From an uncultured Holophagales bacterium (GTDB taxonomy: Bacteria > Acidobacteriota > Thermoanaerobaculia > Multivoradales > UBA5704): a DNA stretch of 64,000 nucleotides. This document shows, piece by piece, positions 1 to 59,900 of this stretch (position 1 is its first letter; each line of letters begins with the position of its first letter). The position numbers and the translations under genes are program-made. The notes under the pieces were generated by a model. The model had not been told where the DNA came from. It saw nothing but the letters and a program-made list of their open reading frames with translations, and searched no databases. The DNA lies in assembly GCA_963842525.1 (NCBI GenBank), contig CAWJGT010000009.1, positions 1,344,001 to 1,408,000 on the forward strand, given 5' to 3'.

Positions 1-2
1 CC

Positions 3-3000
3 ACGGCCGAGGCCCGCAGGCCCTTCGATTTGGCCGCGGGCCGGCCCATCCGTTCGACCCTGTTGAGGCTCGGCCCCGCACGGCACCTCCTGCTCCTGAC
101 GCAGCACCATATTGCCTTGGATGTCTGGTCCGTCGGCCTTCTCGTCGACGAGCTGGCAGAGCTCTACCGGGCGTTTGCCGCGGGCCGGCGGTCGCCGCTG
201 CCGGAGCCGGAGGTGCAATACGCGGATTTCGCGGCCTGGCAGCGCGAGCACCTCCAGGGAGAGGTCCTGGAGAAGCTCCTGGGGTACTGGCGCGAGAGGC
301 TGGGCGACCGCCCGGCCGGGTTCGAATTGCCGGCCGACCGACCGCGGCCCGCTGTCCAGACCTACCACGGAGCGGCCGAGCGGATCGAACTCCCCCCGGC
401 CGCCGTGGAGGGGCTGCGCCGGCTCGCCGCGGCGGAGGGAACGAGCCTCTTCGCTGCCGCGCTCGCCGCGTTCAACGCGGTCCTCCACCGCTGGGTCGGG
501 CAGGACGACGTGATCGTCGGCACCGCGGCGGCGAGCCGTCCCGATGTCGCCGTCGAAACGCTGCTCGGCCTCTTCATCAACACCCTCGTGCTGCGCACCG
601 ATCTCGGCGGGGATCCGACCTTCCGTGAGCTTCTCGGCCGGACGCGCGAGACCGCCCTCGGGGCTTTCAGCCATGCCGAGCTGCCGTTTCAGCAGCTCGT
701 CGAGGTCCTGCAGCCGGAGCGCGACCTGTCACGCGGCCCGCTCTTCCAGATCTTCTTCTCGCTCCAGAACGTCGGCCTGCCCACCCTGGAGCTGCCGGAC
801 CTGACGATGCACCCGGCCGAGTCCTCCTCGGGGGCCTCCCAGTTCGACCTCGCGGTCTATCTCACCGAGTCACCGGCGGGGGTCGACGGCTGGATGGAGT
901 ACAACCCCGACCTCTACGACGCGGAGACGATCCGCCGCCTGGCTCGCCATTTCGCGACGCTCGCCGAGGGAGCTGCCGAGCACACTGACCGGCGCCTCTC
1001 GGATCTCCCTCTGTTGAGTCAGGACGAAGAGGACCGGCTGCTCCGGGAGTGGAGCCATGCCCGGCCCGGCGAGGTGCTCTCCGCGCCGGCCTGCCTGCAC
1101 GAGCTGTTCGCGCGGCAGGTCGAGGAAAGAGGTGGAGAGATCGCGGCAGTTCATCGTGACCAAAGCTGGACCTATCGCGAGTTGGACGCCCAAGCCGGGG
1201 AGGTGGCCCGCCGTCTGCGCGCGCTGGGGGTGGGCCCAGGGGATCGGGTGGGCCTCTGCGCGGAGCGCTCGCTGTCTCTGCTCGCCGGACTGCTGGGCAT
1301 CCTGAAAACCGGGGCCGCCTACGTGCCGCTCGATCCGGGAGCGCCAGCCGCCCGGTTGGAGTGGATGTTGGGCGATGCTGCAGCCTCCGCCGTAGTGATC
1401 CAGGGAGGCCGGGCAGCGCGGTTGATGGCGGGCCGAGAACGAGTCATCGATCTGTCTGTCTTTCCCCCCTCTCCCGGTCGGTGGGGGGGCGATGGGAGGG
1501 GGGCCGGGGGTGAGGGGTCCCCCGCCTACGTCATCTACACCTCCGGCTCCACAGGCACCCCCAAAGGCGTAGTGGTCAGCCACGCCAACGTGGCCGGCTT
1601 CTTCGCCGCCCTGGACGAAGTTCTGCCCAGCCGCGAGCCGGGGGTCTGGCTGGCGGTGACCAGCGTCTCGTTCGACATCTCGGTCCTGGAGCTGCTGTGG
1701 ACCCTGACCCGCGGCTGGCGGGTGGTCATCCAGGACGAGATGGGCGCCGGCCTGGTGCGCGCCCAGCGGACGCCCCGCCGGCCGATCGATTTCAGCCTGT
1801 TCTATTTCGCCGATGCGGGAGGAGACCCGCGGGACAAGTACCGCCTGCTGCTCGAAGGCGCCCGCTTTGCGGACGAGCGCGGCTTCCAGGCGGTCTGGAC
1901 CCCCGAGCGGCACTTCCACGCCTTCGGCGGGCTCTATCCCAATCCCTCGGTCACCGGCGCCGCCGTGGCCGCGGTCACCCGCCGGGTGCAGATCCGGGCG
2001 GGGAGCGTCGTCCTGCCTCTCCACGACCCCCTGCGGGTGGCCGAGGAGTGGTCGGTCGTGGACAACCTGTCCGGCGGCCGGGTCGGTGTCTCGTTCGCCT
2101 CAGGCTGGCACGCCGACGACTTCGTCTTCGCGCCGGACCGCTACGCCGCCCGCAAGGAGGTCATGCTGCGCGAGATCGAGACCGTGCGCGCCCTCTGGCG
2201 TGGCGAGCCGGTCCGCCGCACCGGCGGCAGCGGCCGGGAGGTCGAGGTGAGCGTCCTGCCGCGGCCCCTCCAGCCCGAGCTGCCGATCTGGCTCACCGCC
2301 GCGGGCAATCCCGAGACCTTCCGCCTGGCCGGCGAAATTGGCGCCAGCGTCCTCACGCATCTGCTCGGCCAGACACTCGACGAGGTGGGGGAGAGGATCG
2401 CGGTCTATCGCGAGGCATGGCGTCGGGCCGGGCATCCTGGTGAAGGCGCCGTCACCCTGATGCTCCACACCTACGTCGGAGGCGATGACGCAGCCGTCCG
2501 GGAGATCGTCCGCGGTCCCTTCACCGAGTATCTGCGCAGCTCCTTCGGCCTCGTCGAGAACCTGACGCGCAGCGTCGGCCTGGGCGATCCACGCGAGCTG
2601 TCCGACGAGGATCGCGAGGCGCTCCTCGTCCATGCCTTCGACCGCTACTTCGAGACCAGCGGCCTCTTCGGCGGGCCCGAGACCTGTCTGCGGACCATCG
2701 ACCGTCTGCGGGAGATCGGGGTCGACGAGGTCGGCTGCCTGATCGACTTCGGGATCGATTTCGACACCACGATGGAGGGGCTGCGCCGGCTGGCGGAGCT
2801 GAGGGAGCAACTCGCCGCGGAGGTCCCTCACCCCCCTGGCCCCCCTCTCCCATCCGCACTCCCAATCCGCCGGGAGAGGGGGGAAGGGACACCGATCGAT
2901 GAGGAAAGAGGCCTCGGAACCTCGCTGCTCCCCTCTCCCGGGGGCCGGGGAGTGCGGATGGGAGAGGGGCCGGGGGTGAGGGGCCTTCGCGGCGGCGAAG

Positions 3001-5144
3001 AGTCCTCAGACGACCTCGACCTCTTCTCGCTCTCCGCCCAGATCGCCCGCCAGGGCGCCACCCACCTCCAGTGCACCCCCTCCCTGGCCGGCGCGCTCGC
3101 CGCCGATCCCGACACGCTCGCCGCCCTGGCGCCGCTCCGCACCCTCCTCCTCGGAGGCGAGGCCCTGCCGGCGCCCCTCGCCCGGACCCTGCGCGCCACC
3201 CTTGGCGGCGAGATCCGCAACATGTACGGCCCGACCGAAACCACGATCTGGTCGCTGAGCCATCCGGTGGAGGAAGCCGGAGACCGGGTGCCGATCGGCC
3301 GGCCGCTCGCGAACAACACCGTCTATCTGCTCGACCAGCACCTGCGTCCGGTCCCGCCCGGCATGCCCGGGGAGATCTTCCTCGGCGGCGACGGCGTGAC
3401 CTCCGGCTACTGGCGACGGCCGGACCTGACCGCCGAGCGCTTCGTGCCCGACCCTTTCACGGATCGGCCCGGCTCCCGGCTCTATCGAACGGGCGACCTC
3501 GGGCGGTTCCGGCCCGACGGCGCCGTCGAGTTCCTCGGCCGGATCGACCAGCAGGTCAAGGTCCGCGGGCACCGCATCGAGCTGGGAGAGATCGAGGCGG
3601 CGCTCCTCGCGCATCCCGGGGTCCGGGAGGCCGCCGTGGTGGCGCGGGAGCATGCGCCGGGCGACCTCCGGCTTGCCGCCTACGTGGTGCCCGCGGCCGG
3701 CCGCGCCGCGGAGCCGCTGCAACCCCGGAGCGACGTGCAGCAGGACCGGCCGCACTTCCTGATGCCCAACGGCATGCCCATGGCCTACGTCACCGAGTTC
3801 CAGATGCGAGGAGGCTACCAGGAGATCTTCGCGGACGAGATCTACCTGCGGCACGGCATCGAGCTGCCGGACGAAGCCACAGTCTTCGACGTGGGTGCCA
3901 ACATCGGCCTCTTCACCCTCTTCGTCCACCAGCGCGTGCGGCACCCGCGGGTCTTCGCCTTCGAGCCGTTCCCACCCACCTTCGAGGCTCTTCGCGACAA
4001 CGTAGAGCTCTACGGCCTCGACGTCCGCCTCTTCCACCGCGGCGTGGCCGACCGGCCGGGGCAGACGGAATTCACCTTCTACCCGAACGCGCCCGGCCTC
4101 TCCGGCCGCTTCGCTGGAACCCCGGAAGACCTGGCGGAAAACCGCGCCCTCGTCCTCGACTGGCTGGAGAAGAGCGGCGCCGGGGCCGACCTCCCGGCGG
4201 AGCAGATCGAGGAGGTCCTGCGGGACTACCTGCGGACGGAGACCTTCCCCGTCGAGCTGGTCGCGCTCTCGGATGTGATCCGCGAGCACGGGGTCGAGCA
4301 CATCGACCTCCTCAAGGTGGACGCCGAGAAGAGCGAGGTCGAGATCCTCCGCGGCCTGCTCCCGGAGGACTGGCGGAAGATCGACCAGGTGGTCCTGGAG
4401 GTCCACAGCGACGAGCTGCTGGACAAGGTTTCCCGAATCCTGAAGAGCCACGGGTTCGAGCTGGCGGTCGACGACTTCGCCGTTGCCGAGGAGCGGGACG
4501 ACCGGCAGGCGGTGCGCGTGACCATGGTCTACGCGATCTCCGCCGCGAAACGCGCGCAGAGAGCCGGAGCCGTAGTGCCCGGTCCGGTCTCGGCGAACGA
4601 GCTGCGGCGCTGGCTCGGCGAGCGCCTGCCCGAGCCCATGATCCCCCCCTGCTTCGTCTTTCTCGAGTGCCTGCCGCGCACCCCCGGCGGCAAGATCGAC
4701 CGCCGTTCTCTCCCCGCGCCAGTTGCCGAAGCGCGGCCGGAAGCCGCCTATGTGGCGCCGCGCACTCCGACCGAGGAGGCGATCGCAGCCGTCTGGCGCG
4801 AGATCCTGGGCCGCGAGCGGGTCGGTATCCATGACAACTTCTTCGAAGCCGGCGGCAGCTCCCTCCTGCTGGTCCAGGTCCACGCCCGCCTCAAGCGGGC
4901 GCTCGGCCGCGAGATCACCATGGTGCAGCTCTTCCGCCATCCCTCGGTCCAGGCCCTCGCGCGTTTCCTGGACGAAGGGCCGCGGGAGACGCTCGCGCTC
5001 GCCGGAGCCGAAGAGCGGGTCTCGCGCGCCCGCGCCGCCCAGCCGGGAGGCGCCCTCGACCGCCAGCGGCAGTTCCTCGAAGAGCGGAGAAAGCGCCGCG
5101 ATATTCGCGGTACTGGCGATCCTGGCCGCCGGAGCCCGTCATGA
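3..5144 (+). CDS. NRPS, 5'-truncated: C - A(Gly) interrupted by luciferase-like monooxygenase and FkbM methyltransferase - PCP
   Basis: Frame is open from nt 3 (TAEARRPFDL), so the listed TTG at 30 is not the start. Motifs: C HHIALDVWS; A3 YVIYTSGSTGTPKG; A4 FDIS; LLM FSLFYF..WTPERHFH (~1783-2820); A5 NMYGPTE; A8 GRIDQQVKVRGHRIELGEIE; FkbM FDVGANIG..LLKVDAEKSE (~3750-4540); PCP FFEAGGSS. Code DILQLGMIW = Gly-type. Confidence 0.95.
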   Translation, partial: TAEARRPFDLAAGRPIRSTLLRLGPARHLLLLTQHHIALDVWSVGLLVDELAELYRAFAAGRRSPLPEPEVQYADFAAWQREHLQGEVLEKLLGYWRERLGDRPAGFELPADRPRPAVQTYHGAAERIELPPAAVEGLRRLAAAEGTSLFAAALAAFNAVLHRWVGQDDVIVGTAAASRPDVAVETLLGLFINTLVLRTDLGGDPTFRELLGRTRETALGAFSHAELPFQQLVEVLQPERDLSRGPLFQIFFSLQNVGLPTLELPDLTMHPAESSSGASQFDLAVYLTESPAGVDGWMEYNPDLYDAETIRRLARHFATLAEGAAEHTDRRLSDLPLLSQDEEDRLLREWSHARPGEVLSAPACLHELFARQVEERGGEIAAVHRDQSWTYRELDAQAGEVARRLRALGVGPGDRVGLCAERSLSLLAGLLGILKTGAAYVPLDPGAPAARLEWMLGDAAASAVVIQGGRAARLMAGRERVIDLSVFPPSPGRWGGDGRGAGGEGSPAYVIYTSGSTGTPKGVVVSHANVAGFFAALDEVLPSREPGVWLAVTSVSFDISVLELLWTLTRGWRVVIQDEMGAGLVRAQRTPRRPIDFSLFYFADAGGDPRDKYRLLLEGARFADERGFQAVWTPERHFHAFGGLYPNPSVTGAAVAAVTRRVQIRAGSVVLPLHDPLRVAEEWSVVDNLSGGRVGVSFASGWHADDFVFAPDRYAARKEVMLREIETVRALWRGEPVRRTGGSGREVEVSVLPRPLQPELPIWLTAAGNPETFRLAGEIGASVLTHLLGQTLDEVGERIAVYREAWRRAGHPGEGAVTLMLHTYVGGDDAAVREIVRGPFTEYLRSSFGLVENLTRSVGLGDPRELSDEDREALLVHAFDRYFETSGLFGGPETCLRTIDRLREIGVDEVGCLIDFGIDFDTTMEGLRRLAELREQLAAEVPHPPGPPLPSALPIRRERGEGTPIDEERGLGTSLLPSPGGRGVRMGEGPGVRGLRGGEESSDDLDLFSLSAQIARQGATHLQCTPSLAGALAADPDTLAALAPLRTLLLGGEALPAPLARTLRATLGGEIRNMYGPTETTIWSLSHPVEEAGDRVPIGRPLANNTVYLLDQHLRPVPPGMPGEIFLGGDGVTSGYWRRPDLTAERFVPDPFTDRPGSRLYRTGDLGRFRPDGAVEFLGRIDQQVKVRGHRIELGEIEAALLAHPGVREAAVVAREHAPGDLRLAAYVVPAAGRAAEPLQPRSDVQQDRPHFLMPNGMPMAYVTEFQMRGGYQEIFADEIYLRHGIELPDEATVFDVGANIGLFTLFVHQRVRHPRVFAFEPFPPTFEALRDNVELYGLDVRLFHRGVADRPGQTEFTFYPNAPGLSGRFAGTPEDLAENRALVLDWLEKSGAGADLPAEQIEEVLRDYLRTETFPVELVALSDVIREHGVEHIDLLKVDAEKSEVEILRGLLPEDWRKIDQVVLEVHSDELLDKVSRILKSHGFELAVDDFAVAEERDDRQAVRVTMVYAISAAKRAQRAGAVVPGPVSANELRRWLGERLPEPMIPPCFVFLECLPRTPGGKIDRRSLPAPVAEARPEAAYVAPRTPTEEAIAAVWREILGRERVGIHDNFFEAGGSSLLLVQVHARLKRALGREITMVQLFRHPSVQALARFLDEGPRETLALAGAEERVSRARAAQPGGALDRQRQFLEERRKRRDIRGTGDPGRRSPS
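1464..1517. repeat. Half copy of CCCTCTCCC/GGGTGAGGG palindromic (REP-like) element, in frame in NRPS
   Basis: CCCCCCTCTCCCGG...GATGGGAGGGGGGCCGGGGGTGAGGGG matches the right arm of the full copies. Translated as PPSPGRWGGDGRGAGGEG directly before A3. Confidence 0.8.
2825..2982. repeat. 158-bp REPIN-like inverted-repeat element, in frame in NRPS
   Basis: Arms CCCTCACCCCCCTGGCCCCCCTCTCCCATCCGCACTCCC / GGGGAGTGCGGATGGGAGAGGGGCCGGGGGTGAGGG. Each arm has its own CCCTCTCCC..GGGAGAGGG hairpin. Lies at the LLM/A-domain junction. Confidence 0.9.
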
Positions 5145-6055
5145 CCGAGCCCGCCCGCCGCCACACTCTGCCCAACGGTCTCGAGGTCGCCTACCAGTCC
5201 AAGGCCGAGCTGCTGCAGTTCTACGAGGACATCTTCGAGAAGCAGGTCTACACCCGCGGCGGGATCACCCTGCGCGACGGCGACACGGTCTTCGACGTCG
5301 GCGCGAACATCGGCCTCTTTTCAGTCTTCGTGGCCGAGCGCTGGCCAGGCGCGCGCATCTGGGCCTTCGAGCCGGCGCCGCCCCTCTTCGAGATCCTGCG
5401 CGCCAACACGGCCCGCTATGGCGACCGGGTACGGCTCCTCAACTGCGGCCTGTCGAACCAATCGGGCGAGGCCCGGCTCACCTTCTATCCCCACACGTCC
5501 GGCATGTCCTCCTTCTACCCCGATGGGCAGCAGGAGGCCGCGGCCCTGCGCACCCTGATCCGCAACGAGGCGCAAGGCCGGAAAGAAGTGGAGGAGCTGC
5601 GCGCCTGGGAGGACGAGCTGATCGAGCAGCGCCTCCGGAGCGAGACGTTGACCTGTTCCCTGCGAACCCTCGCCGAGGTCGTCCGCGAGGAGGGAGTGAC
5701 CCGGATCGACCTCCTCAAGGTCGACGTCGAGAAGAGCGAGATGGACGTCCTCGAAGGCATGGATGCCGAGGCCTGGAGCAAGGTCGAGCAGGCCGTCGTC
5801 GAGGTCCACGACCTGGGCAGCCGACTCCTCGACATCCAGCGCCGTTTCCGCGATCTCGGCTTCGCGGTGACCCTGGAGCAGGACGACCTCTACCACGGCT
5901 CGGACCGCTACAACCTCTACGCGCTGCGCGAGCACCTCCGCAGCTCCGACCTCCACCACCTCCGCCGTCCCGACCGCGCCGCCACCCTAGGCCGCATCGA
6001 AGACCGCGCGAAGAAGCTCCGGGACGCCATGCACAAAGGGCCGCGCAAGATCTGA
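5141..6055 (+). CDS. FkbM-family SAM-dependent methyltransferase
   Basis: ATGA overlap with the NRPS stop. Motifs VFDVGANIG, AFEP, IDLLKVDVEKSE. Clearly similar to the FkbM domain embedded upstream. Confidence 0.92.
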   Translation: MTEPARRHTLPNGLEVAYQSKAELLQFYEDIFEKQVYTRGGITLRDGDTVFDVGANIGLFSVFVAERWPGARIWAFEPAPPLFEILRANTARYGDRVRLLNCGLSNQSGEARLTFYPHTSGMSSFYPDGQQEAAALRTLIRNEAQGRKEVEELRAWEDELIEQRLRSETLTCSLRTLAEVVREEGVTRIDLLKVDVEKSEMDVLEGMDAEAWSKVEQAVVEVHDLGSRLLDIQRRFRDLGFAVTLEQDDLYHGSDRYNLYALREHLRSSDLHHLRRPDRAATLGRIEDRAKKLRDAMHKGPRKI

Positions 6056-6072: not shown

Positions 6073-7689
6073 TTACAGCGGCCCGCCGCCTGAGCGTTCC
6101 CGCCTCCCCTGGAAGGCGTGGAGGTCCACACGTTCGAAGGTATTGACGTCGCCTCCGGCGGGCACATGGATCTTCCACTCGCGGGTCGCCTGCTGCCGAA
6201 TGTAGGCGCCCACCTGATAGGACCACGAGGCCGTGTAGGGAGCGTCTGCCCAGCCCCAGGGCGAGCCGTCCGGGGCCGGCCCGAGCACGGTGGGACGCTG
6301 GCCCGCAGGCGGGAGGTCGAAGGCGCCCACGATCCAGACGCGATGGCCCGACCGCAGGGTCCGGCGGACGGCGCGCAGCACATCCCTGATCGGCTCCTGC
6401 GCCGTCATCCGCGCCTTGAACAGGTCATAGCGGTGCATCCTGTGGTCTGCCAGCCGCGGGACCGTCGTCTAGCGCGCTTCTCCCTGGTAGTAGCGGTGGA
6501 AGCTGATGCCATAGAACCAGGGATTGACCAGGATGAGGTCCCGTGGCCCGGCGTGCCCGGCAAGGTGCTGCGCGATGCGATCGACGTTGGTCATCCGCAG
6601 GCTCGCTTCCCGGTATGCGGCCGGCAGCAGGAGGGCGGTGAAGACCCCGGCCGCTGCCAGGCGCACGAATTGGAGCGCGGGGAGACGCACGGGGCTCGCG
6701 AGCAGCCCATCCAGGGCGCTTGCCATGAGAGCCATCAGGGGGAGGCAGTACCAGATCCGTGGCTGGTAGCCCAGCACCACGAAAAGGGCGTACTGGGCGC
6801 CGAAGGCCGCGGGGATCGCCAGAAGCCGGAAGAGCCGCGCATCGGCCGCCGCCGGGTCCGGATCGGTCTTGCGGACCAGAGCCCAGAGCGCTGCGGCGAA
6901 GGCGACCACGAGGAGGGCGATCCAGGCCCGGTAGACGGGGATGCGGACATGGGTGAAAGCGCCGGCGATCGCCAGCAGGATCCTCTGGGCGCCGAGGTCC
7001 TCGACGAGCAGGATGTCCCACTGCCGGGCGGCGGCGAGCGGCCGGACATAGGGAAGCAGAGAGAGGGCCGCCAGGAGACCCACGCCCAGGGCAGCCACGG
7101 CCACCCGCCAGCGCCGGCGGACGACACCCACGATGGCGGCGGCCACGCCCATCCCGAGGAGCAGCGCCGCGTTGTGCAGCAGGCAGTGGACGCTCAGCAC
7201 GGCCATCAGGGCCGCGGCGGCAATGGCTCGCCCGTCCGGCCGTGCGACGAGCCGCGCGAAGGCCCAGAAGGTGAGCAGGATCAGCGCCGTCCCCATCCCG
7301 TAGCCACGGACCGAGTCGCCATAGACCAGGAACCAGGGGTGGAATGCCAGCACGGCCACGGAGACCAGAGGCACGGTCCCGGCGGCGCGGGCATTGAGCC
7401 ACAGCACGCCCAGGATGGCGAGCCCGACGATCAGGCCGAAGAGGCGAAAGGAGAGGTCGGAGCCTCCGAAAGCCGCTGACCAGGAGCGGAGGGTCAGCGG
7501 GAACAGCATGGGAAAGGCTTCGTGGGGGAACCGCTGGAAGACCTCACCCAGGGTCGGGAGGCTCGCGAGCTGCACGGCGCCCGCCTCGTCCCGCCACAAA
7601 CCGCCGGCGTTCTGCGTCCGCACGACATGGAGCGCCACCGCCAAGAGGCTCAGGAGGACGGCGGCGGCAGTCTCGAACCGTTTCAGCAT
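6073..7689 (-). pseudogene. Polytopic membrane protein, GT-C/PMT(GT39)-like, with in-frame TAG at 6469-6471
   Basis: ORFs 6469..7698 and 6073..6438 are in the same frame (YYQGEAR*TTVPRLADHRMHRYDLFK). LWRDEA loop and many hydrophobic helices. The stop may be a sequencing error (TGG>TAG). Confidence 0.65.
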
Positions 7690-7767
7690 CTCCGCCAACT
7701 CACACGGCGGCGCATGCTAGCACGGCGTAGCGGTGGCCCCGGCGCTGCCCGGGGCCGCCTCTTCCGC

Positions 7768-8466
7768 CTACTTGAAGGAGATCAGGACGCGGCGCGCGCC
7801 GCAGCCGGTGCGGTGGGTACCGCCGATGACGCGGTTGAGGCCGAGAAAGATGGCCCGCTTGTCCGCCGCCGGCACCGTGGGATCGGTATCGGGAATGGCG
7901 AAGAGGTTCTTGCTGGCCGGCGCCTGCGCGCGGGCGAACGGCTGCCCCCAGCTCACGTACTGGTTCTTGACGACGAACTTGAGGGAGCCGTCGGTCAAGG
8001 AGACGTGCTGGAAGAAGCTCGGGTTGTCGGGAGCGGCCCCGCCGTTGGTCAGTGCGAGATCCTCGTTGAGGACCCACAGCTCAGCGTCGTTCGTCGTGGA
8101 CCCGGAGTCCCCCGCGTGGCCGTCATTGGTCGGCGAGTCGCCAAGGTTCACCGACCACGCCGAAGGCAGGCCCTCATACTCGACGACGACGTTGGCCTGG
8201 GTGCAGTTCGCGGGGATGACGATCCTGAGGGCTGCCATCTTCCAGCCGGCCGCGGCAGGGCAGGATGCGGTCACCGGAACCGGGCTGAGAGTTCCACCTG
8301 GCGTGAAGCCGACGGAGCCGGCCGGGAGGGGGGCGACGGTGTAGCCGACCCCTGTCTTGAGGTCCAGACCGACCAATCCTGTCGGGCATTGCGCCTGCAC
8401 GGCAGCCGGGGCCGCTGCCAGAACGAGACCGCAGAGAACGAAGTGGATCATGGATTTGCGGAGCAT
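7768..8466 (-). CDS. Secreted protein of unknown function (Sec signal peptide)
   Basis: Start MLRKSMIHFVLCGLVLAAAPAAVQA with AAAGGAAG RBS upstream. Four Cys in the mature part and an acidic GDSPTNDGHAGDSG..NDAE motif. Confidence 0.8.
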   Translation of the reverse strand: MLRKSMIHFVLCGLVLAAAPAAVQAQCPTGLVGLDLKTGVGYTVAPLPAGSVGFTPGGTLSPVPVTASCPAAAGWKMAALRIVIPANCTQANVVVEYEGLPSAWSVNLGDSPTNDGHAGDSGSTTNDAELWVLNEDLALTNGGAAPDNPSFFQHVSLTDGSLKFVVKNQYVSWGQPFARAQAPASKNLFAIPDTDPTVPAADKRAIFLGLNRVIGGTHRTGCGARRVLISFK

Positions 8467-8518
8467 GGTGTTTCTTCCTTTCGTTGGGTTGATGGCTCGT
8501 GGCCGGCAACCCCTCATC

Positions 8519-8533
8519 GCAACGGCCGTGCCG
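8519..8533 (-). promoter_or_regulatory. Sigma-54 (-24/-12) promoter for the secreted protein gene
   Basis: Minus strand reads CGGCAC-GGCCG-TTGC, matching YGGCAC-N5-TTGC. It is ~50 bp upstream of the ATG and divergent from a sigma-54 activator. Confidence 0.75.
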
Positions 8534-8647
8534 TGCCCGTCACGATCCGCTAAACCCATTCAGATCAATGCCTTGTCTTCTCCTTTCGGCAGCCGCGGAG
8601 GCCGTTTTCAGGGGCGGCTTCGCCGCGGTTTTGGTAAAGTCACCCCG

Positions 8648-10162: not shown

Positions 10163-13100
10163 GCGCGGCCCGGGCGCGGCGGGCGAGGAGGCCATAGCCG
10201 GCCGCGGCGGCCTCTCGTGCGACCGCCGCCAGCCGTGCGCGGCCGGTGGCCTCGCCCGTCTCATCGGCACCGGCCTCCAGGGTGCCGAGGATGAGCCGGG
10301 CCTCCAGGGCGAGCGGGCGCAGGCCCATGTGCTCCGCTTCGGCGAGGGTGGCGCGTAGCGCACCAGCCGCCTGGCGAACCTGTCCTGTCGCCGCTTGAAC
10401 CCGCGCCGCGGCCAGGGACGCCTGGAGCTGAAGCACCCGGTTCTCGCAGGCGGCGAGAGGCTCTGCGGCGCGCTGGACCTCGGCGGCGGCAGCGTCCTTG
10501 CGGCCCTGGGCCAGGGCGGCCAGGACGAGCACGGTCCGCGCCGGCAGCTCGTCATCCGGCGACGGTTTCGCTCCCAGGGTGGCCAGGGATGCGCGCACCA
10601 TGGCGGCCCCGGCCTCGGCCTGGCCGGCGTCCACCAGGACCCGCGCCAGCTCGACCCTCTGGCGCGCCGCCCAGAGCTTCTCGCCCACGGCGTCGAGGCC
10701 GGCGGCGGACGCCCCCAGCTCTCGTTGCGCCGCAGGCAGATCGCCGCGCAGAGCCAGCACCTGTCCCTGCAGGCCCCGGTCCTCGGCCACTCCGGACGCC
10801 TCGCCGGTCGAGCGATGCAGCGCCAGGGCACGGGATACCAGGTCCGCCGCTTCCTGGAGCTTCCCTTCCTCGATGGAGAGCGCGGCCAGATTGGAGAGCA
10901 CCGCCGCCTCGCTGCTGCGGTCGCCGAGCTCGCGCAGGGTGGCCGCTGTCTCCGCGAACAAGGCTCGCGCCTGAATGCGCCGACCCAACCGCTGGTCGAC
11001 GCGCGCCAGGTTGACGCCGATCTGGGCCGCCGTCCTCTTCGCTCCGATGCGGCGGAAGATGGCCAGCGCCTCCTCATAGCTTTCCCGAGCCCCGGCCAGG
11101 TCGCCGCGCTCCGAGAGGGTGACGCCGATGTTGGTCAGGCCGAGACCTCGGGTCTCCTCATTCCCGGTCGCACGGCCGATGGCGATGACCTCCTCGAACG
11201 TCCGGCGGGCGGCGGCAAGTTCACCCTGCTGCGCGAGGACGGAGCCGACGGCGCTGAGCGCCGTGGCCGCCGAGACGAGGTCTCCGGACGCCCGGAACAG
11301 CTCGTGGGCGCGCTCGTCGGCGACCCGCGCCTCGGGCAGGCGGCCGAGAGCGCGGAGGCCGACCCCCTGGAAGTACAGCGCCCGTGCGACCACGAGCGGC
11401 GCATCCTGGAGCTCCCCTTCGCGTTTGGCGCCTGCCGCAGCCTCGAGCGCCTGCTCGTAGTCGCCGAGGCTCAGGGAGGCTTCGGCTTCGACGAGGTCGA
11501 TCCGCGGGTCGTCGCGCCCGGGAAGCGCCGACGCGCGCAGGAGCGCGACCGTGTCGAGGGCGGCGACCGCGTCTCCCTTCTGGATCTGCACCCGCCCCAG
11601 GCGGAGGCCGTATTCGAAGTCGTCGGGAAAGCGGGTCCACAGCTCGCGATAGACGGCGGCTGCCGGCTCCCACTGCCGCAACGTCTCGTAGAAGCGGGCC
11701 TCCACCCGCCGCCGGGATTCATAACCGAGCGCGGACGAGCGGCGGAAAGCCTCCCGCGCGGACTCCTCGGCGCGTGCCTGCCAGCCCAGCGTCTTCCAGG
11801 CGGCGGCCAGCTCGGCCCGGATGAGCGCATTGTCCGGATCGGCGTCGCGCGCCTGTTCGAGCAGGCTCGTCGCCTGCAGGGTCTCGAAGCGCGAGAGCTT
11901 CTCCAGGCCCTCGGCATAGAGGCGGGCAGCACGCACGCTGGCCGGCCGGGCCGCCTGCATCGCCTCCTTTTCCGCAGTGGACAGATCCTCCATTCCCAGG
12001 CCGTGGCGCAACCGCATGCCGAGCGTATCGATCAGATCGAGGAGGGCCTCCTCGGTCCCGTCCTCGCGCACCGAGCCGACGATCTCGCCGCTGCGGGCGT
12101 CCTGGATCGTCACGGTACAGCGGACCCGTCCGCGCTGGCGGGCGAGGTACGCGCCGGTGATCACGAAGTCGGCGGCGAGGCGGGTACGCAGGCGCGCCAG
12201 GGCCTCCGGAGAGAGGTCCGAGCCGGTCGACAAGGCGAGGTCCTGCCGCGCCCGGGTCACCTGCTCGCCGGGGATCAGCCGCAACCGCTCCCCGGCGGCG
12301 AGCTCGGAAGGCAGGAGTCGCACCAGCGAGCGCTCCACATAGTCCAGCTCCGGATCCCGGGATAGGTTCTCGAAGCCGAACACCGCCACGGCGGGGCGTG
12401 GTGCGGCTGGCGACGGAGCGACGGAAGGCTGCCGGAGGGTCTCCCACGTCCGCCAGCCGATGGCGGCGAGGACGATCAGCACCACGGCTGTGCCCGCGGC
12501 CCACGCCCATCGGGAACGGCGCCGCCGGCGCAACGTGCGCGGTGAGGGCCCCGAGCCACGGGCACCGCCGGAGGTGGACAAGGCCCGCGCCACCTCGACC
12601 GGCGTGGCAAAGCGCTCGGCCGGATCGCTCTCCAGGCAGCGCAGGATCACCTCCTCCCAGAGCGGATCGAGGCCGGGCTCGTAGACGCGCGGCAGCGTCG
12701 GCGGCTCGCACAGGCGCTTGATCGCCGTTCCGACCGCTGTGTCGGCGCTGAACGGCAGACTGCCGGTGACCATCTCGTAAAGGACGATGCCGAAGGCGTA
12801 GACGTCGGTGGCCGGCGTCACCGGCTCGCCCCGGACCTGCTCAGGGGCCATGTAGGCCGGCGAGCCGAGGATGGTACCCGTGCGGGTGACCGAGGCCGAC
12901 ACCGAGCTGCTCCAGGCGAGGCCGAAATCGGTGACCACGGCGCGCAGGCCCTCGGACCCTTGCACCAGCATGACGTTGCCGCTCTTGAAATCGCGATGGA
13001 CGACGCCGGCCTGATGGGCAGCCTGCAGGCCCTCGGCAATGTGGGCGACCAGCGGCAGCGCCTCGGGCGGGGTCAGCCGTCCCGTGCGCTGGAGGCACTC

Positions 13101-13448
13101 CTCCAGCGTCTCGCCGCACAGCAGCTCCATGGTGATGAACGCGAGATCGGCCCCGCCCTCTCCATGGTGATGGAACAGGTCGAAGGTCCGGCAGACGCTG
13201 GGATGGGTGACCCGGCGGGCGAGCTGGATCTCGCGCTTGAAGCGGTGCAGCACCTCCGGATCGCGGGCGATCTCGGGGCGCAGCACCTTGACGGCCACCT
13301 GCTCCTCGAGCTCGAGGTCCGTGGCCTCGTAGACCTCTCCGATCGCCCCCTCGCCGAGACGGGCGACGATCCGGAAACGGCCGGCAAGAACCTGGCCCGC
13401 TGCCAGCAGCGGTGCGCCGAAACGGCTCTTGGAGGGCGGCTCTTCCAC
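10137..13448 (-). CDS. Ser/Thr protein kinase with transmembrane segment and TPR repeats
   Basis: LGEGAIGEVY, VAVK, HRDFKSGN, TDFG, YMAPE; TM helix (WAWAAGTAVVLIVLAAIGW); VAVFGFENLS domain; helical TPR-like repeats. GTG 13448 with GAGG RBS is taken as the start. 3' end overlaps the activator by 26 bp. Confidence 0.9.
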
Positions 13449-13569
13449 TCTGGTTGACCTCTCAGCCGGGATCAAGGGTACCGTCCTCACTATATCGTGC
13501 CAGGCAGCCCGAAGCGGGAACAACCGTCGGCATGTCCTCCTCCCTACCTCGGTGGGTATGGGGGAGATT

Positions 13570-13947
13570 GCAGTGGGAGTTGCCGCTGCCGCGGTGGGCT
13601 TTGCCGCCGCCGCGGTTGGAGCTGCCGCTCCCACGGGAGCGGTTCGACTCCCCGCGGGGAATGTAGCTGGTCCCGCAGTGGGAGTTGCCGCTGCCGCGGT
13701 GGGCTTTGCCGCTGCCGCGGTTGGAGTTGCCGCTCCCGCGGGAGCGGTTCGACTCCCCGCGGGGAATGCAGCTGGTCCCGCAGTGGGAGTTGCCGCTGCC
13801 GCGGTGGGCTTTGCCGCTGCCGCGGTTGGAGTTGCCGCTCCCGCGGGAGCGGTTCGACTCTCCGCGGGGAATGTAGCTGGTCCCGCAGTGGGGGTTGCCG
13901 CTGCCGCGGTGGGCTTTGCCGCTGCCGCGGTTGGAGTTGCCGCTGCC
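13570..13947. repeat. Higher-order tandem repeat: 3.6 x 105-bp unit, each of five related 21-bp subunits
   Basis: GCAGTGGG starts recur at 13570, 13675, 13780 and 13885. Subunits: GCAGTGGGAGTTGCCGCTGCC / GCGGTGGGCTTTGCCGCTGCC / GCGGTTGGAGTTGCCGCTCCC / GCGGGAGCGGTTCGACTCCCC / GCGGGGAATGTAGCTGGTCCC. Confidence 0.95.
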
Positions 13948-13999
13948 ACGGACGGCTACCCCCGGCAGCCGGCGCTCTCTGCTGCTAAAATAACGGCTC

Positions 14000-15001
14000 A
14001 TGCCCAGATCCCTGATGCCTGAAGAGCGCGCGGCGATCCGCAGGCTCTCGCGGCGGAGCAACGCGCGGGCCTTTCTCACCATCGCTCTGGACTGGGGTGT
14101 GATCGCGCTGGCGGCGGCGCTGGCCGAGCTGTCGGCCTCCCCCTGGGTCTATGCGCTGGCCGTCATCGCCATCGCCCGGCAGATGAACGCGCTCTTCGAG
14201 CTCCACCATCACGCGATCCATGCCAACCTCTTCACCCGCAAGGCCTGGAACCGCGCCCTTGAGCCTCTGTACTCGCTGCCGCTCTGGGTCACGGTCGACT
14301 CCGACCGGGCCGACCACATGGAGCACCACCGCACCTTCACCGTAGAGGACTCCCACACCTGGGGCACCGGCTACGGCCTCGATCCGGCGCGGCGACACGA
14401 CCGGCGCTACATGCGTTGGTTCCTCATCATCCGGCCCTTCCTGGGGATCCTGCAGGCGGCCGACCTGCGGGAGATCCTGACCTCCCGGCGATGGCAGGAC
14501 GCTGGCTACCGGCGCCGGGTGCTCGCCTTCTGGGCCTGTGCCGTGGGGCTGCTGATGGTGGCCGGCCGGCTCGACCTGCTGCTCTGGTACTGGCTCGTGC
14601 CGCGCTTCACGGTGTTCCCGATCCTGTTTTTCTGGGACGACATGATGGGCCACTACAACAGCCAGCGCACCGGCACGCGGGAGATGCGCGGCTTCTGGTT
14701 CGCGCTCTTCTGCGCGCACGGCACGAGCTTCCACAACGTCCACCACCTCTTCCCGGCCGTCCCCTGGTTCCGGATGGAGGCGGCCACGAAGGTCGCCGTG
14801 GACGAAGCCGAGGTGGACGTGGCGCACGGCTTCCTGGACGGCATGCGGCAGCTCTGCGAGGTGCCGGAGGCTGGAAGGTCCCCGTCTTGGGCTCAGACCC
14901 CGTCGTGTCATCCTGAGCGCAGCGAAGGATCTGGGGGAAGGCGAAAGAGATCCGACGATTTGGGACCTTGGCTCGCGGAGCCTTCCCGTTCGCGCCAATA
15001 G
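14000..15001 (+). CDS. Membrane-bound fatty acid desaturase family protein
   Basis: Three His boxes (HHAIH, HMEHH, HNVHH) and hydrophobic segments. The C-terminal ~40 aa read through a REP-like sequence. Confidence 0.88.
   Translation: MPRSLMPEERAAIRRLSRRSNARAFLTIALDWGVIALAAALAELSASPWVYALAVIAIARQMNALFELHHHAIHANLFTRKAWNRALEPLYSLPLWVTVDSDRADHMEHHRTFTVEDSHTWGTGYGLDPARRHDRRYMRWFLIIRPFLGILQAADLREILTSRRWQDAGYRRRVLAFWACAVGLLMVAGRLDLLLWYWLVPRFTVFPILFFWDDMMGHYNSQRTGTREMRGFWFALFCAHGTSFHNVHHLFPAVPWFRMEAATKVAVDEAEVDVAHGFLDGMRQLCEVPEAGRSPSWAQTPSCHPERSEGSGGRRKRSDDLGPWLAEPSRSRQ
14906..14953. repeat. REP-like element TGTCATCCTGAGCGCAGCGAAGGATCT with truncated inverted partner (AGATCC)
   Basis: Resembles the widespread (C/T)GTCATCCTGAGCG..GCGAAGGATCT REP class, with internal ATCCT..AGGAT palindrome. 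Confidence 0.7.
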
Positions 15002-15045
15002 GTGTTAAAGTTTCTTTCTGGAACGACTCCGATGGGAGCCAAGCC

Positions 15046-15828
15046 ATGAGCCAGTCCGCCGCCGCATCGCTCGCGCGCCTTCCCTTCGAGCTCGTCTACG
15101 AAGACGGGGAGCCCATGGAAGATCACTGGCATGTCGTCGGGAAGGATCTGCTCATCGACCAGGTCCGCCAGGTGATGGCGGAGAGAGGCCGGTCCGACTA
15201 CTTCACCAGCGGCAATATCTTCGTCTACTACTCCTTCAGGCAGGCTGAGGACGTGGTGAAGGGGCGTTCCTACTTCCGCGGTCCGGACTTCTTCTACGTG
15301 GGCGGAGTCGACGGCCGGCGGGAGCGTCACGCCTGGGTGGCGTGGGAAGAGGGAGGGCGTCTCCCCGATCTCATCGTAGAGCTGTTGTCTCCCAAGACGG
15401 CGCAGGTGGATCGGACGACGAAGAAGGAGCTGTACGCCCGGACGTTTCGGACTCCGGAGTATTATCTCTACGACTTCGAGACCCTGAACCTCGAGGGGTT
15501 CCTGCTGGCCGGCGACGCATACGTACCCATGGTGCCCAACGTGCAGGGCCGTCTCCGGAGCCGGCAGCTCGGGCTCGACCTGGGCCTCTGGCACGGACTG
15601 CGGGATGAGGTGGAGACCACATGGTTGCGGTTCTACCATCCCGATGGCCGCCTCGTCCCGACCCGCGACGAAGCCGCGAGTCAGCGTGCCGAGGCTGAGC
15701 ATCAACGTGCCGAAGCTGAGCACCAGCGCGCCGAAACCGAGCGTGAGCGAGCCGAAGCGGCGGAAGCGCGCGCCGAGGCGGCTCTGGCCGAGTTGGAGCG
15801 CCTGCGCGCCAAGCTTGCCCATCTTTAG
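15046..15828 (+). CDS. Uma2 (DUF820) family PD-(D/E)XK endonuclease with C-terminal coiled coil
   Basis: EDGEPME..H, GPDFFYV, PDLIVELLSP.T..DR..KK, EYYLYD; heptad QRAEAEH tail. Confidence 0.88.
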   Translation: MSQSAAASLARLPFELVYEDGEPMEDHWHVVGKDLLIDQVRQVMAERGRSDYFTSGNIFVYYSFRQAEDVVKGRSYFRGPDFFYVGGVDGRRERHAWVAWEEGGRLPDLIVELLSPKTAQVDRTTKKELYARTFRTPEYYLYDFETLNLEGFLLAGDAYVPMVPNVQGRLRSRQLGLDLGLWHGLRDEVETTWLRFYHPDGRLVPTRDEAASQRAEAEHQRAEAEHQRAETERERAEAAEARAEAALAELERLRAKLAHL

Positions 15829-29687: not shown

Positions 29688-56976
<27,289 letters not shown>

Positions 56977-56987
<11 letters not shown>

Positions 56988-59900
56988 AGTTGCAGAGGAT
57001 GAGGCCCTGGAGGAGAGGGCGGAGGTCGAGAGCCAGCGGCTGTTGCATGCGCTTTTCGAGGAGCGCTGCGACGAAGACCCCCAGGCGGTCGCGCTGGTCG
57101 ACGGCCGGGACCGTCTGACCCGCGCCGAGCTGGAGGGCCGCGCCAACCAGCTCGCCCGGCATCTGCAATCCCTCGGCGTCGGCCCCGAGGTGAGGGTCGC
57201 GATCTGTGCCGAGCGCACAGCCGAGATGATCGTCGCCCTGTTCGCCGTGCTCAAGGCGGGCGGCGCTTACGTGCCGGTCGATCCGACCTATCCGCGCGAG
57301 CGGCAGGCGATCATCCTGGAGGACAGCCAGGCGCCGCTCCTCCTCACGCAGGAGCGCCTGCTCGACCGGCTGCCGGCGACGTCGGCCGCGATCGTCTGCC
57401 TCGACCGTGACTGGCCCAGCGTGGAGCGGTGGAGCGCGGCGCGGTTGGGCCAGCCGGCGCCGCTGGGGCTCGCGCGGCTGCCGCTGGACCTCGCGCGGCA
57501 GCCGCCCGACCTCGTGGACCCTCACCCCCGGCCCCTCTCCCATCCGCACTCCCGACCCCCGGGAGAGGGGAGCCCCCCACCCGAGAGCTTCGTGCCTGTG
57601 CATCTTCCCCCCTCTCCCGGTGGGATGGGAGTGCGGATGGGAGAGGGGGGCCAGGGGGGTGAGGGTCCTGCTCCCGGCAACCTCGCCTATCTGATCTACA
57701 CCTCCGGCTCGACCGGCCGGCCCAAGGGCGTCGCCATCGAGCACCGCTCGGCCGTGGCCCTGATCCGCTGGGCGAGCGAGGTCTTCCCTCCCGACGAGCT
57801 TGCCTGCGTCCTGGCCTCGACGTCCATCTGCTTCGACCTGTCGATCTTCGAAATCTTCCTTCCGCTGGCCCTGGGCGGCCGGATCGTCCTGGCCGAGAAC
57901 GCCCTCGCTCTGCCCAGGCTGCCGGCCGCGGAGGAGGTGACGCTCGTCAACACCGTCCCCTCGGCGATTTCCGAGCTGGCGCGGATGGGCGGCATCCCGC
58001 CGTCCGTGCGGGTGATCAACCTGGCGGGAGAGCCGCTGCGCAAAGCCCTGGTCGAACGGCTCTACCAGGTGCCGACGGTGGAGAAGGTCTACAACCTCTA
58101 CGGTCCCTCGGAGGACACGACCTACTCGACCTGGGCGTTGATGCGGCGCCAGGACCCCTTTGCTCCGTCCATCGGCCGGCCGCTCGACGGCACCCGGGTC
58201 CACCTGCTCGACGCCGAAATGCAGCCGGTGCCGGCGGAGGAGGCGGGCCAGCTCTATCTGGCCGGAGCCGGCCTCGCCCGCGGCTATCTCGGCCGGCCGG
58301 ACCTGACCGCGGAGAAGTTCGTCCCCGACCCCTTCGCCGGGCAGCCGGGCGAGCGCCTCTATGCCACCGGCGACCTGTCGCGCTACCGGCCGGACGGGGA
58401 GATCGATTTCCTCGGCCGCATCGACCACCAGGTCAAGATCCGCGGCTTCCGCATCGAGCTGGGCGAGATCGAGGCGGCCCTGGAGCGCCATCCCGCAATC
58501 GCCGACACCGTGGTGGTGGCCCGCGAGTCCGAGGCGGCCGAGATCTCCGAAAGGGTCCTGGTCGCCTATGTCGTGGCCGTCGGGGGCGCTCCGCTGGCGC
58601 CCGTCGAGCTGCGCGCCTGGCTCCAGCGCAGCCTGGCCGAGTACATGATCCCTTCCCACTTCGTCCTGCTCTCCGCGCTGCCGCTGACGCCCAACGGCAA
58701 GGTGGACCGCAAGGCGCTGCCGGCGCCCGAGCGCGCGGTGGCGGATGGGTACATGGCGCCGCGCACGCCTCTGGAGACGAAGCTGGCCGGGATCTGGGCC
58801 GAGGTGCTGGAGCTGCCGCGGGTCGGCGCCGGGGACGACTTCTTCGCCCTGGGCGGTCATTCCATTGTGGCCACACGCATCCTGGCGCGGGTGCGCGAGA
58901 GCCTCGGCGTCGAGCTGCCGGCTCGCACCCTGTTCGATGCGCCGACCGTGGCCCTGCTGGCCGCGCGGGTGGCGGCGGCGAGCCGGAAAACCGCGCCGGA
59001 CGCGGTGGGCCTGCCGCCCGTCGAGCCGGTCTCCCGCGAGCTGCCGCTCGACGCCTCCACCTCCCAGGAAGGGATGTGGCTCGCCGATCGCCTGAGCCCG
59101 GCCTTCCCGCTGTTCAACATCCCCCTGCAGCTCACCTTGCGCGGACCGCTCGACGCCGCGGCGCTGCAGCGCGCCCTGTCCGAGATCGTGCGCCGCCACG
59201 AGGCGTTGCGGGCCGTGTTCGGGGAGCGTGACGGACACCTGCGGCCGGCGCTCTCCGCCGCGGCCACGGTGGAGCTGCCCGCGATCGATCTGCGGCTGCT
59301 GCCCGATCCCGCGGCGTCCGCAGAGGCCCTGGCCGCCACGGCCGCACGCCAGCGCATCGACCTCGCCTGCGGGCCGCTGCTGCGGGCTCTCCTCCTGCGC
59401 GTCACCGATCGCGAGCACCGGCTCGTCGTCGTCGTCCACCATATGGCCGGGGACGACTGGTCGACCTGGGTCCTGGTGCGCGAGCTGGCGGCCCTGTATG
59501 CCGCGTTCGCCGCCGGCCGCCCGTCGCCGCTCCCCGAGCTGCCGGTCCAGTACACCGACTTCGCGTCCTGGCAGCGGGCCTGGCTCGAAAGCCCAGCGGC
59601 CGAGGCCCAGCTCCGCTTCTGGGTGGAACGCCTGGCGGGGGTTCCGGAGCTGCTGGAGCTGCCGGCCGACCGGCCGCGCCCCGCGGTCCGCAGCTTCGAG
59701 GGCGGGCGCCTCACCGCCATGGTCCCGGCGACGGCCGTGCGCGCGCTTGCCGGCCTCGCCCGGCGCCGCGGGGCCACGCCCTTCATGGCCCTGCTCGCGG
59801 TGTTCGAGACGCTGGTCCACCGCGTCACCGGCCGGGAGGACGTCGTCGTCGGCTCGCCGATCGCCGGACGGCGCGTGCCGCAGGTCCAGGACCTGATCGG

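Follow-up and report, generated by a model that had tools for sequence, protein, structure and literature searches.

Closest described systems

Of the ways in which nonribosomal peptide synthetases (NRPS) fuse tailoring with the selection of a substrate, interrupted adenylation (A) domains are the best understood, and A domains with two interruptions have reportedly been engineered by hand. We describe here a natural one, in the NRPS gene found at the start of a 64,000-nucleotide stretch of DNA from an uncultured Holophagales bacterium (assembly GCA_963842525.1, contig CAWJGT010000009.1; G000:C9:1344001–1408000 in our numbering of the genome). This whole stretch is called the window, and coordinates are window positions unless stated otherwise. 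The A domain in question, whose code is of the glycine type, contains both a luciferase-like monooxygenase (MOx) and an FkbM-family methyltransferase; this doubly interrupted A domain is real and appears to be uncharacterised. We give a probability of about one half to a reading in which the module would load glycine, hydroxylate its α carbon and O-methylate the new hydroxyl, to give an α-methoxyglycyl thioester that is kept.

Regarding the first insertion, the precedent is that of MtaG and MelG (myxothiazol and melithiazol), where a monooxygenase also sits inside a glycine A domain, in agreement with the analogy drawn in a first-pass annotation of this DNA. These proteins have the architecture C-A-MOX-A-T-TE, and α-hydroxylation of the condensed glycine has been proposed (PMC11411415). 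They end in a thioesterase (TE), whereas our module, like all of the 142 relatives discussed below, has none, and its protein stops about 50 residues after the peptidyl carrier protein (PCP) domain. In addition, our A domain has an extra FkbM insert between motifs A8 and A9, and most of its relatives whose context is known pass the chain on instead of ending it.

The closest solved relative of the MOx itself is the PuwE monooxygenase (PDB 6KET, E = 1.6e-117 over 346 aligned residues). Together with an aminotransferase, the PuwE domain is proposed to produce a 3-amino-2-hydroxy acyl unit, which is extended by the next NRPS module (PMC4219810). PuwE's domain thus offers a parallel for a proposed hydroxylation beside the thioester, on a chain that is carrier-bound and later extended; however, it lies between a polyketide synthase (PKS) and an NRPS module and its substrate is a β-amino acyl chain, whereas ours lies inside an A domain of the glycine type. 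Luciferase-like monooxygenases of the TIGR04020 subfamily are described as α-hydroxylases in several assembly lines in the palmerolide paper, where OnnC, from the onnamide cluster, is also cited as one of them and as a proposed hydroxylase (PMC8739492). We found no confirmation of the site of action of OnnC, the accessible parts of PMC7196800 and PMC7157528 being silent on the origin of the pederin-type aminal.

Regarding the second insertion, methyltransferase (M) domains between a8 and a9 occur in KtzH and TioS, as the first-pass annotation had it, and where such embedded domains have been studied, in these two proteins, they modify the residue that the A domain around them has loaded (PMC8341866). 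The type II M domains of KtzH(A8-MII-A9)4 and ColG (families 2a and 5a) share with our insert the a8–a9 site, the insertion boundary and the motif DVGx(N/H)xG, and they O-methylate a carrier-bound residue (PMC8341866). They differ from it in that our code is of the Gly type and not that of Ser or Thr, in that the hydroxyl would here have to be made by the MOx, and in that the FkbM domains of MOx-bearing modules form a separate clade. The survey from which this classification is taken (Lundy, Mori, Garneau-Tsodikova 2020; PMC8341866) distinguishes seven families of interrupted A domains. One of them, the di-interrupted family 7, resembles ours in that natural A domains are split at two places, but the insertions are two M domains, at a2–a3 and a6–a7, instead of a monooxygenase at a4–a5 and an M domain at a8–a9. 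In the main text of the survey, "monooxygenase" and "FkbM" do not occur, and MOx is mentioned nowhere but in the introduction and the list of abbreviations.

The literature that we searched, which comprised few subscription journals and no supplements, holds no description of an A domain doubly interrupted by MOx and FkbM (or M) domains, nor of a natural methoxyglycine unit; this agrees with the first-pass annotation, to which no characterised A domain with both insertions was known. The architecture is not unique, 142 instances having been found. The architecture is visible in databases, where automatic annotations already name both domains, and it carries no interpretation there.

Outside A domains, pairs of a hydroxylase and an O-methyltransferase make N-acyl-α-methoxy units in the N-acyl aminals of the pederin family and in the α-methoxylation of cephamycin and sulfazecin. 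These enzymes follow the two-step logic that we propose here, and the carbon concerned likewise carries an acylated nitrogen; they are free-standing, and the β-lactam cases use non-flavin oxygenases. The N-acyl-N,O-acetal forms the core motif of pederin-type toxins.

The catalogue of interrupted A-domain families would be enlarged by a natural example in which an oxygenase and a methyltransferase are nested at two sites. If our proposal is true, α-methoxyglycine joins the building blocks of NRPS as a protected hemiaminal with a new stereocentre, the presence of an epimerase after a "glycine" module is accounted for, and the module offers a way to N-acyl-N,O-acetals that is both compact and portable. 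The module marks more than 100 orphan clusters, mostly from uncultured soil phyla, whose products would in that case have a diagnostic +30 Da glycine.

A glycine-type A domain split twice

The window opens inside a reading frame (3..5144, + strand; protein P0001) that is open at the window's 5′ edge. The full gene is G000:C9:1343559–1349144, that is −441..5144 (+), and codes for 1861 residues (P0002; P0001 residue + 148 = P0002 residue). Its ATG, 441 nt 5′ of the window, overlaps the stop of the preceding NRPS gene. The product is a single-module NRPS, C-A-PCP, whose A domain is split twice: mapping with the Pfam and NCBIfam profiles gives the condensation (C), A and PCP domains, and places both inserts in the A domain.

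The C domain (1..1043, +; Pfam Condensation at P0001 4–347) has an intact HHxxxD motif (HHIALD, 105–125). The A domain is then found in three parts on the + strand. The N-terminal part (A1–A4) covers 1107..1739 and includes the A3 motif at 1536–1568 and A4 (FDxS) at 1671–1691; AMP-binding is matched in two stretches of P0001, the best of which is this one (369–579). The middle part (A5–A8) covers 3024..3707, with the strand bearing code position 278 at 3063–3083, A5 at 3219–3239 and A8 at 3537–3596; it is matched by the second stretch of TIGR01733 and by positions 1–39 only, of 76, of the AMP-binding_C profile (P0001 1196–1235), and ends at the A/M boundary LAAYVVP (3672–3692). The C-terminal part (4536..4733) holds A9 (4626–4649) and A10 (4683–4703). 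It is followed by the PCP domain (4779..4970, +; Pfam PP-binding at P0001 1593–1656; GGSS at 4839–4868) and by a basic tail of about 50 residues, up to the stop at 5144.

The MOx (1791..2810, +) sits between A4 and the strand that bears code position 278, hence between A4 and A5, while the methyltransferase insert (3759..4478, +) begins directly after LAAYVVP, between A8 and A9. The first-pass annotation was right about both, which it had put at ~1783–2820 and ~3750–4540. The span of 1530–4710 that it gave to the whole does contain the two inserts, but 1530 corresponds to the A3 motif and the A domain starts near 1107.

The ten code columns of the A domain read DILQLGMIWK, the residues D, I and L being within FDISVLE (1671–1691), Q, L, G, M, I and W in the middle part and the lysine in PGGKIDR (4683–4703); the code DILQLGMIW(K) noted earlier is thus reproduced from the A-domain columns. 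These columns were assigned according to what we take to be the GrsA numbering. We read DILQLGMIWK as a code of the Gly type, the Stachelhaus code for Gly presumably being DILQLG(L/M)IWK. The code is complete in 141 of the 142 doubly interrupted A domains, and is DILQxGxxWK in 140 of them and DIVQLGLVWK in one. The target A domain is therefore predicted, from its code, to activate glycine. As compared to family 2a (KtzH-type), it has the boundary and the S-adenosylmethionine (SAM) motif, and lacks the Ser/Thr specificity, provided DILQLGMIWK is indeed a Gly code.

The MOx is of the FMN-dependent MupA/Atu3671/PuwE type. It matches the full profile of NCBIfam TIGR04020 (MupA/Atu3671 luciferase-like monooxygenases; positions 1–341 of 341, P0001 597–934) with 525.9 bits for a cut-off of 244.45, and the Pfam family Bac_luciferase (PF00296; P0001 605–909) with E = 4e-47. 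The second insert matches the FkbM family Methyltransf_21 (PF05050) over the whole profile (1–173 of 173; P0001 1296–1487), with E = 1.6e-16 and 61.4 bits for a cut-off of 22.7. Its SAM motif, FDVGANIGLF (3885–3914), contains DVGANIG, which fits the KtzH-type DVGx(N/H)xG, and LAAYVVP matches the a8–a9 insertion boundary L(V/A/I)(A/G)(Y/F)xxx of PMC8341866; it is thus a KtzH-like, "type II" insert. A sequence search of the PDB with this insert returned no relative at E ≤ 0.01. Among 29 FkbM-family enzymes from characterised clusters, O-methyltransferase activity is shown experimentally for 4 and inferred for 25 (PMC9259500). Both inserts look functional, since the target has kept all the columns that are conserved at ≥95% among the 142 relatives (109/109 in the MOx and 36/36 in the FkbM domain).

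Distribution of the two insertions

The protein samples discussed here were drawn with the target gene and one paralogue as queries, so that the counts are not a census and the relatives are not independent. The search with residues 700–1720 listed 120 clusters, including the query: PF00296 and PF05050 are present in 120/120 and a ketosynthase (KS) in one, and the Pfam annotation names a thioesterase in none of these listed clusters. Where a source is named, it belongs to the Acidobacteriota (Thermoanaerobaculia, Pyrinomonadaceae, Blastocatellia), the Chloroflexota (Herpetosiphon, Roseiflexaceae), or to Nostoc, Corallococcus or Longimicrobium; cultured carriers are Corallococcus sp. Z5C101001, Herpetosiphon sp. 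NSE202 and strains of Nostoc. The genes nearest to the target are from metagenome-assembled genomes of Acidobacteriota (Thermoanaerobaculia). A second search, which used the A8-FkbM-A9 part and was aimed at longer proteins, listed a further 120; FkbM is present in every one of them and MOx in about one fifth.

Domains were mapped in the 241 database proteins with probes cut from the target gene. This search for the same architecture gave 250 instances of FkbM, of which 142 are in A domains with MOx, 98 in A domains without MOx, and 10 are unplaced. The MOx and FkbM pair is therefore not rare, with at least 142 doubly interrupted A domains. The genome of the target itself contains a second doubly interrupted module (P0131, C9:1538696–1541224), and five MOx copies without FkbM. 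Scans of the contigs of genomes returned 2 close loci, a metagenome scan 1 further doubly interrupted locus among the best 80, and a phylum-wide genome search, in which 2 candidates were scored per genome, one clear case, on a short contig.

The 98 A domains that contain only FkbM have Thr-, Ser-, Gln-, Glu-, Asp/Asn-like and other codes. Glycine has no side-chain nucleophile, other than one that the MOx would make. In the tree of 243 FkbM sequences, the branching follows the substrate class of the A domain that hosts them, and the 142 MOx-paired domains, together with 4 others, form one clade with a support of 1.0. On the tree of 230 monooxygenase domains, on the other hand, the presence of FkbM switches at least 15 times, which suggests that FkbM is readily gained, lost or swapped.

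FkbM-interrupted A domains are thus not confined to Ser/Thr codes. The other codes include Gln-like (DAWQFGLIDK), Glu-like (DAKDLGVVDK) and Asp/Asn-like (DLTKxGHxGK), for example in P0128, P0126, P0169, P0148 and P0241; each has its own FkbM clade, and they go beyond the published description of type II as Ser/Thr. A TauD-type hydroxylase domain is also present in two of these FkbM-interrupted, non-Ser/Thr proteins.

What follows the module

In 130 of the 142 cases, the protein ends 150–330 residues after the FkbM insert, with the PCP and a short tail; 3 are truncated and 9 continue in cis, with C-A-PCP in three cases, a KS in one, and two condensation-like domains in the remaining five, the first of which is an epimerization (E) domain (E-C) by its motifs. 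According to the Pfam lists (PF00975), none of the 142 proteins with both inserts has a TE. The next step is known for 14 modules (9 in cis and 5 from the next gene), and it is KS, C or E-C in 12 of the 14.

The second copy in the genome (P0131, locus L060) is at the end of a 4568-residue, FAAL-led protein, and is followed by an overlapping gene which starts KS-AT-ACP-C-A-PCP-C-A-PCP, and whose KS has the motifs TACS, HGTGT and NxGH. The metagenome locus L063, in which a KS-AT-ACP gene comes next, has the same layout. In the case of L013, a free FkbM gene comes next, then KS-AT-KR-DH-ACP and C-A; in L012, a free FkbM gene is followed by a convergent gene.

The target and L012, its closest relative (74% identity in the FkbM region), are both operon-terminal, and neither a TE nor a downstream module comes after them. 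Behind its PCP, the target has a basic tail (...DRQRQFLEERRKRR...) similar to those of the relatives that precede a KS, and acidic tails precede C-led proteins in the cluster of the target; we take this as a weak hint that the partner of the target may be KS-led.

The epimerase motifs of the first condensation-like domain in the five E-C cases were recognised from motif definitions that we assume to be correct. The domain that follows the PCP in P0096 matches the chains 2XHG, 6TA8 and 5ISW (TycA, TycB and GrsA) with E values of 1e-89 to 1e-95, and C domains with 1e-11 to 1e-12 only; it also matches TIGR01720 with 168.9 bits. We take these chains to be E-domain structures and TIGR01720 to be a marker of E domains; judging from these matches, the P0096 domain is genuinely of the E type. 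Identity among the five E domains is only 47–66%, yet all have HHxxxDG, and their A-domain codes are DILQMGxxWK. As a control, in the genome of the target, 14 of the 267 A domains detected precede an E domain, whereas among the 18 with a Gly code not one does. Behind a "glycine" module, an epimerase would be pointless unless the α carbon were chiral and retained, which is what its presence therefore implies.

The proteins that have the MOx but not FkbM offer a comparison. We considered 88 of them, listed with the paralogue at C9:1018137 as query; 87 codes are complete and of the Gly type, and the 88th is incomplete. Of these proteins, 66 end after the PCP, 7 have a TE (as MtaG does) and 10 have more than 650 residues downstream. 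Epimerase motifs are present in none of the 21 MOx-only tails of at least 300 residues. In both samples, then, a TE occurs only without FkbM (7/88 vs 0/142) and an E domain only with it; this contrast amounts to tendencies between two sets of sequences. The MOx-only Gly module L061 (G000:C9:1016892–1022141, minus strand), whose monooxygenase is 67% identical to that of the target, is the last one in its operon; no TE was found in the protein itself or in the adjacent open reading frames (ORFs) scanned.

Proposed mechanism and alternative explanations

The following sequence of events may be proposed. The A domain would activate glycine and load it onto the PCP, and the C domain would acylate the PCP-bound glycine with the upstream chain. 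The embedded, FMNH2/O2-dependent MOx would then hydroxylate the α carbon of the N-acyl-glycyl thioester, as is proposed for MtaG/MelG and PuwE, and the KtzH-type FkbM insert would O-methylate the new hemiaminal hydroxyl with SAM. The product would be a chiral N-acyl-α-methoxyglycyl (N,O-acetal) unit, which would not fragment to an amide and could stay in the chain. Where the hydroxyl and the methyl group are placed, and in which order, is what we infer. Indirect support for this hydroxylation and O-methylation comes from the KtzH-type motif of the methyltransferase, the closeness of the MOx to PuwE, the absence of TE in 142/142, the extension in 12 of 14 cases and the E domain in five.

The wider proposal, to which we give slightly less than even odds, is that there exists a large class of NRPS modules that build chiral α-methoxyglycine wholly in cis, of which the target would be the first to be recognised. 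The module would usually feed a ketosynthase, a dedicated epimerase would set the stereocentre in some lineages, and the class would extend over Acidobacteriota, Chloroflexota, Cyanobacteria, Myxococcota and Gemmatimonadota.

Several observations weigh against these proposals. The target and L012 are operon-terminal, as said above. The five cases with an E domain share one architecture and may be one lineage. In-cis extension is at least as frequent in MOx-only modules (10/88) as in doubly interrupted ones (9/142), which shows that O-methylation is not needed for extension. Nyuzenamide D contains an internal α-hydroxyglycine that is stable enough to crystallise (PMC12224093). EreM, a member of the FkbM family and the sole N-methyltransferase reported in PMC9259500, N-methylates backbone amides. 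The 4 additional FkbM domains of the Gly-MOx clade are in A domains without MOx, which have Glu-like and Ala-like codes. Last, the NRPS gene directly upstream of the target changes frame four times, a point that we come back to below.

The first-pass annotation had proposed that glycine is hydroxylated, then O-methylated, and that the unit is extended rather than released. The motif DVGx(N/H)xG, the PuwE-like MOx and the wiring of the relatives speak indirectly for the chemistry; the extension stays a conjecture for the target locus, whose module is operon-terminal. Methylation is no prerequisite of extension, considering how often MOx-only Gly modules are extended in cis.

The first alternative, which we consider improbable, is that the module is a terminator similar to MtaG/MelG: the hydroxylated terminal Gly would collapse, releasing an amide and leaving glyoxylyl-S-PCP, and the FkbM domain would do something else, such as an N-methylation that gives an N-methylamide, or would act on some other group. 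The precedents for the two activities are MtaG/MelG themselves and the amide N-methylation by EreM (PMC9259500). The operon-terminal positions of the target and L012, the fact that in 130 of 142 cases the PCP of the doubly interrupted module is the last domain of the protein, and the MOx-only Gly module of the same genome, which is also operon-terminal and without TE, are all consistent with a terminator. However, 12 of the 14 modules of known context feed a KS, a C or an E-C, which release would leave useless, and the E domains imply that a chiral α carbon is retained. The TE of MtaG/MelG is absent in 142/142, and the tail of the target resembles those of relatives that precede a KS-led protein.

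It is less probable still that α-hydroxyglycine is retained as such, FkbM methylating another nucleophile, either the nitrogen of the backbone amide or, on the residue upstream, a hydroxyl or a carboxyl. The MOx-only modules extended in cis (10/88), the stability of the hydroxyglycine of nyuzenamide D (PMC12224093) and the four clade members that have no MOx partner fit with this possibility, and the family is not limited to Ser/Thr hydroxyls, considering the Gln-, Glu- and Asp/Asn-like codes of the FkbM-only A domains. Against it, the embedded M domains that have been studied (KtzH and TioS) modify the residue of their own A domain (PMC8341866), and FkbM domains cluster according to the substrate class of their own A domain. 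The E domains, moreover, are found only after doubly interrupted modules (5 of the 9 extended in cis, against none of the 21 MOx-only tails).

We regard it as very unlikely that the locus is decaying or inactive in the source strain, the architecture having been inherited and giving no product. The four frame changes occur at about 11.4–15.3 kb of locus L009 (the region ~11400–15400 = G000:C9:1335400–1339400). In the same upstream gene a C domain is directly followed by a PCP, a transposase-like gene lies between the first two megasynthase genes, and the target gene contains a 182-nt repeat. It may be that this repeat, in the linker, and the upstream frame changes mean that the assembly line is inactive in the source strain. 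However, the target gene is an uninterrupted frame of 1861 codons with all the conserved columns kept, and the repeat lies in a linker and is read through in frame. An independent soil-metagenome contig, which shows no other difference over 151 nt, is 1 nt shorter precisely where one of the frame changes occurs (L062:6212; this is a single contig, with a depth of 2.3). The other NRPS cluster of the window is likewise in overlapping ORFs, which fits better with assembly indels than with decay; these seem to us the likelier explanation of the upstream frame changes.

The formation of an O-methyl oxime from the free amine of glycine is ruled out by the upstream C domain, whose HHxxxD is intact, and by the upstream PCP that feeds the module.

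Genomic context

The genome is 9.95 Mb long with about 70% G+C, and is unusually rich in NRPS, the 267 or so A-domain cores being those detected in it. Upstream of the target, the cluster starts with FAAL-ACP-C-A-PCP-KS-AT-KR-ACP (3387 residues), followed by a DUF4440 gene and, on the other strand and between the first two megasynthase genes, by the weak Rpn/transposase-like gene mentioned above. Then come, towards the target, KS-AT-KR-ACP, a stretch of NRPS domains, C-A-PCP, and the target itself. A B12-binding radical SAM protein, which has weak matches to HpnR- and BchE-type methylases, is encoded 745 nt 5′ of the first megasynthase gene (L010:10536–12074, +); by these matches, it is a candidate for an additional alkylating enzyme.

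The last gene of the operon (5141..6055, +) codes for a free-standing FkbM-family methyltransferase of 304 residues (PF05050, E = 1.2e-18; TIGR01444, 106.5 bits). Its start overlaps the stop of the target gene, so that the two are translationally coupled, and a counterpart follows the homologues in L012 and L013. The free FkbM genes of these three loci group with the embedded FkbM of Glu-coded A domains (support 0.85), and not with the insert of the target. Judging from the G+C content at third codon positions (GC3), the genes after the free FkbM gene lie on the minus strand and are convergent. A TE or hydrolase adjoining the target was considered and rejected: the plus-strand ORFs at 6118–7479 and 7522–8553 have a non-coding GC3, and the real genes there are on the minus strand. 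The minus-strand genes at 6118–8553 have no informative family matches, and there is no TE among the flanking genes examined around the target.

A search of sequencing runs for the locus returned one soil-metagenome DNA run, with 0.09 of the sampled words, in contigs of 150–335 nt and depth 2–3; no RNA run with sequence of the locus was found.

The second NRPS/PKS cluster of the window (21423–64000, +), whose domains are split at ORF ends, starts C-A-PCP-KS-AT-KR-ACP and goes on with many C-A-PCP modules. Three Gly-coded A domains occur in a row within this cluster (C9:1390486, 1393551 and 1396635).

Repeat element in the MOx–A5 linker

The repeat inside the target gene (2813..2994, +) is a palindromic element of the REP/MITE type, and appears as a gap in the alignment of the homologues. 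This imperfect palindrome of 182 nt has inverted arms at 2813–2835/2972–2994 and 2842–2889/2922–2969, and its translation in frame adds 57 residues to the MOx–A5 linker, which are absent from 10 homologues. Matches to parts of it occur at 518 places in the genome, of which 289 match on both strands and 108 fall inside stop-free frames of at least 1000 codons. This ~180-nt repeat is also seen in the window at ~1444–1517, ~41946–42107 and ~57516–57669, and a close metagenomic homologue of the target, P0004, has a similar piece before A3.

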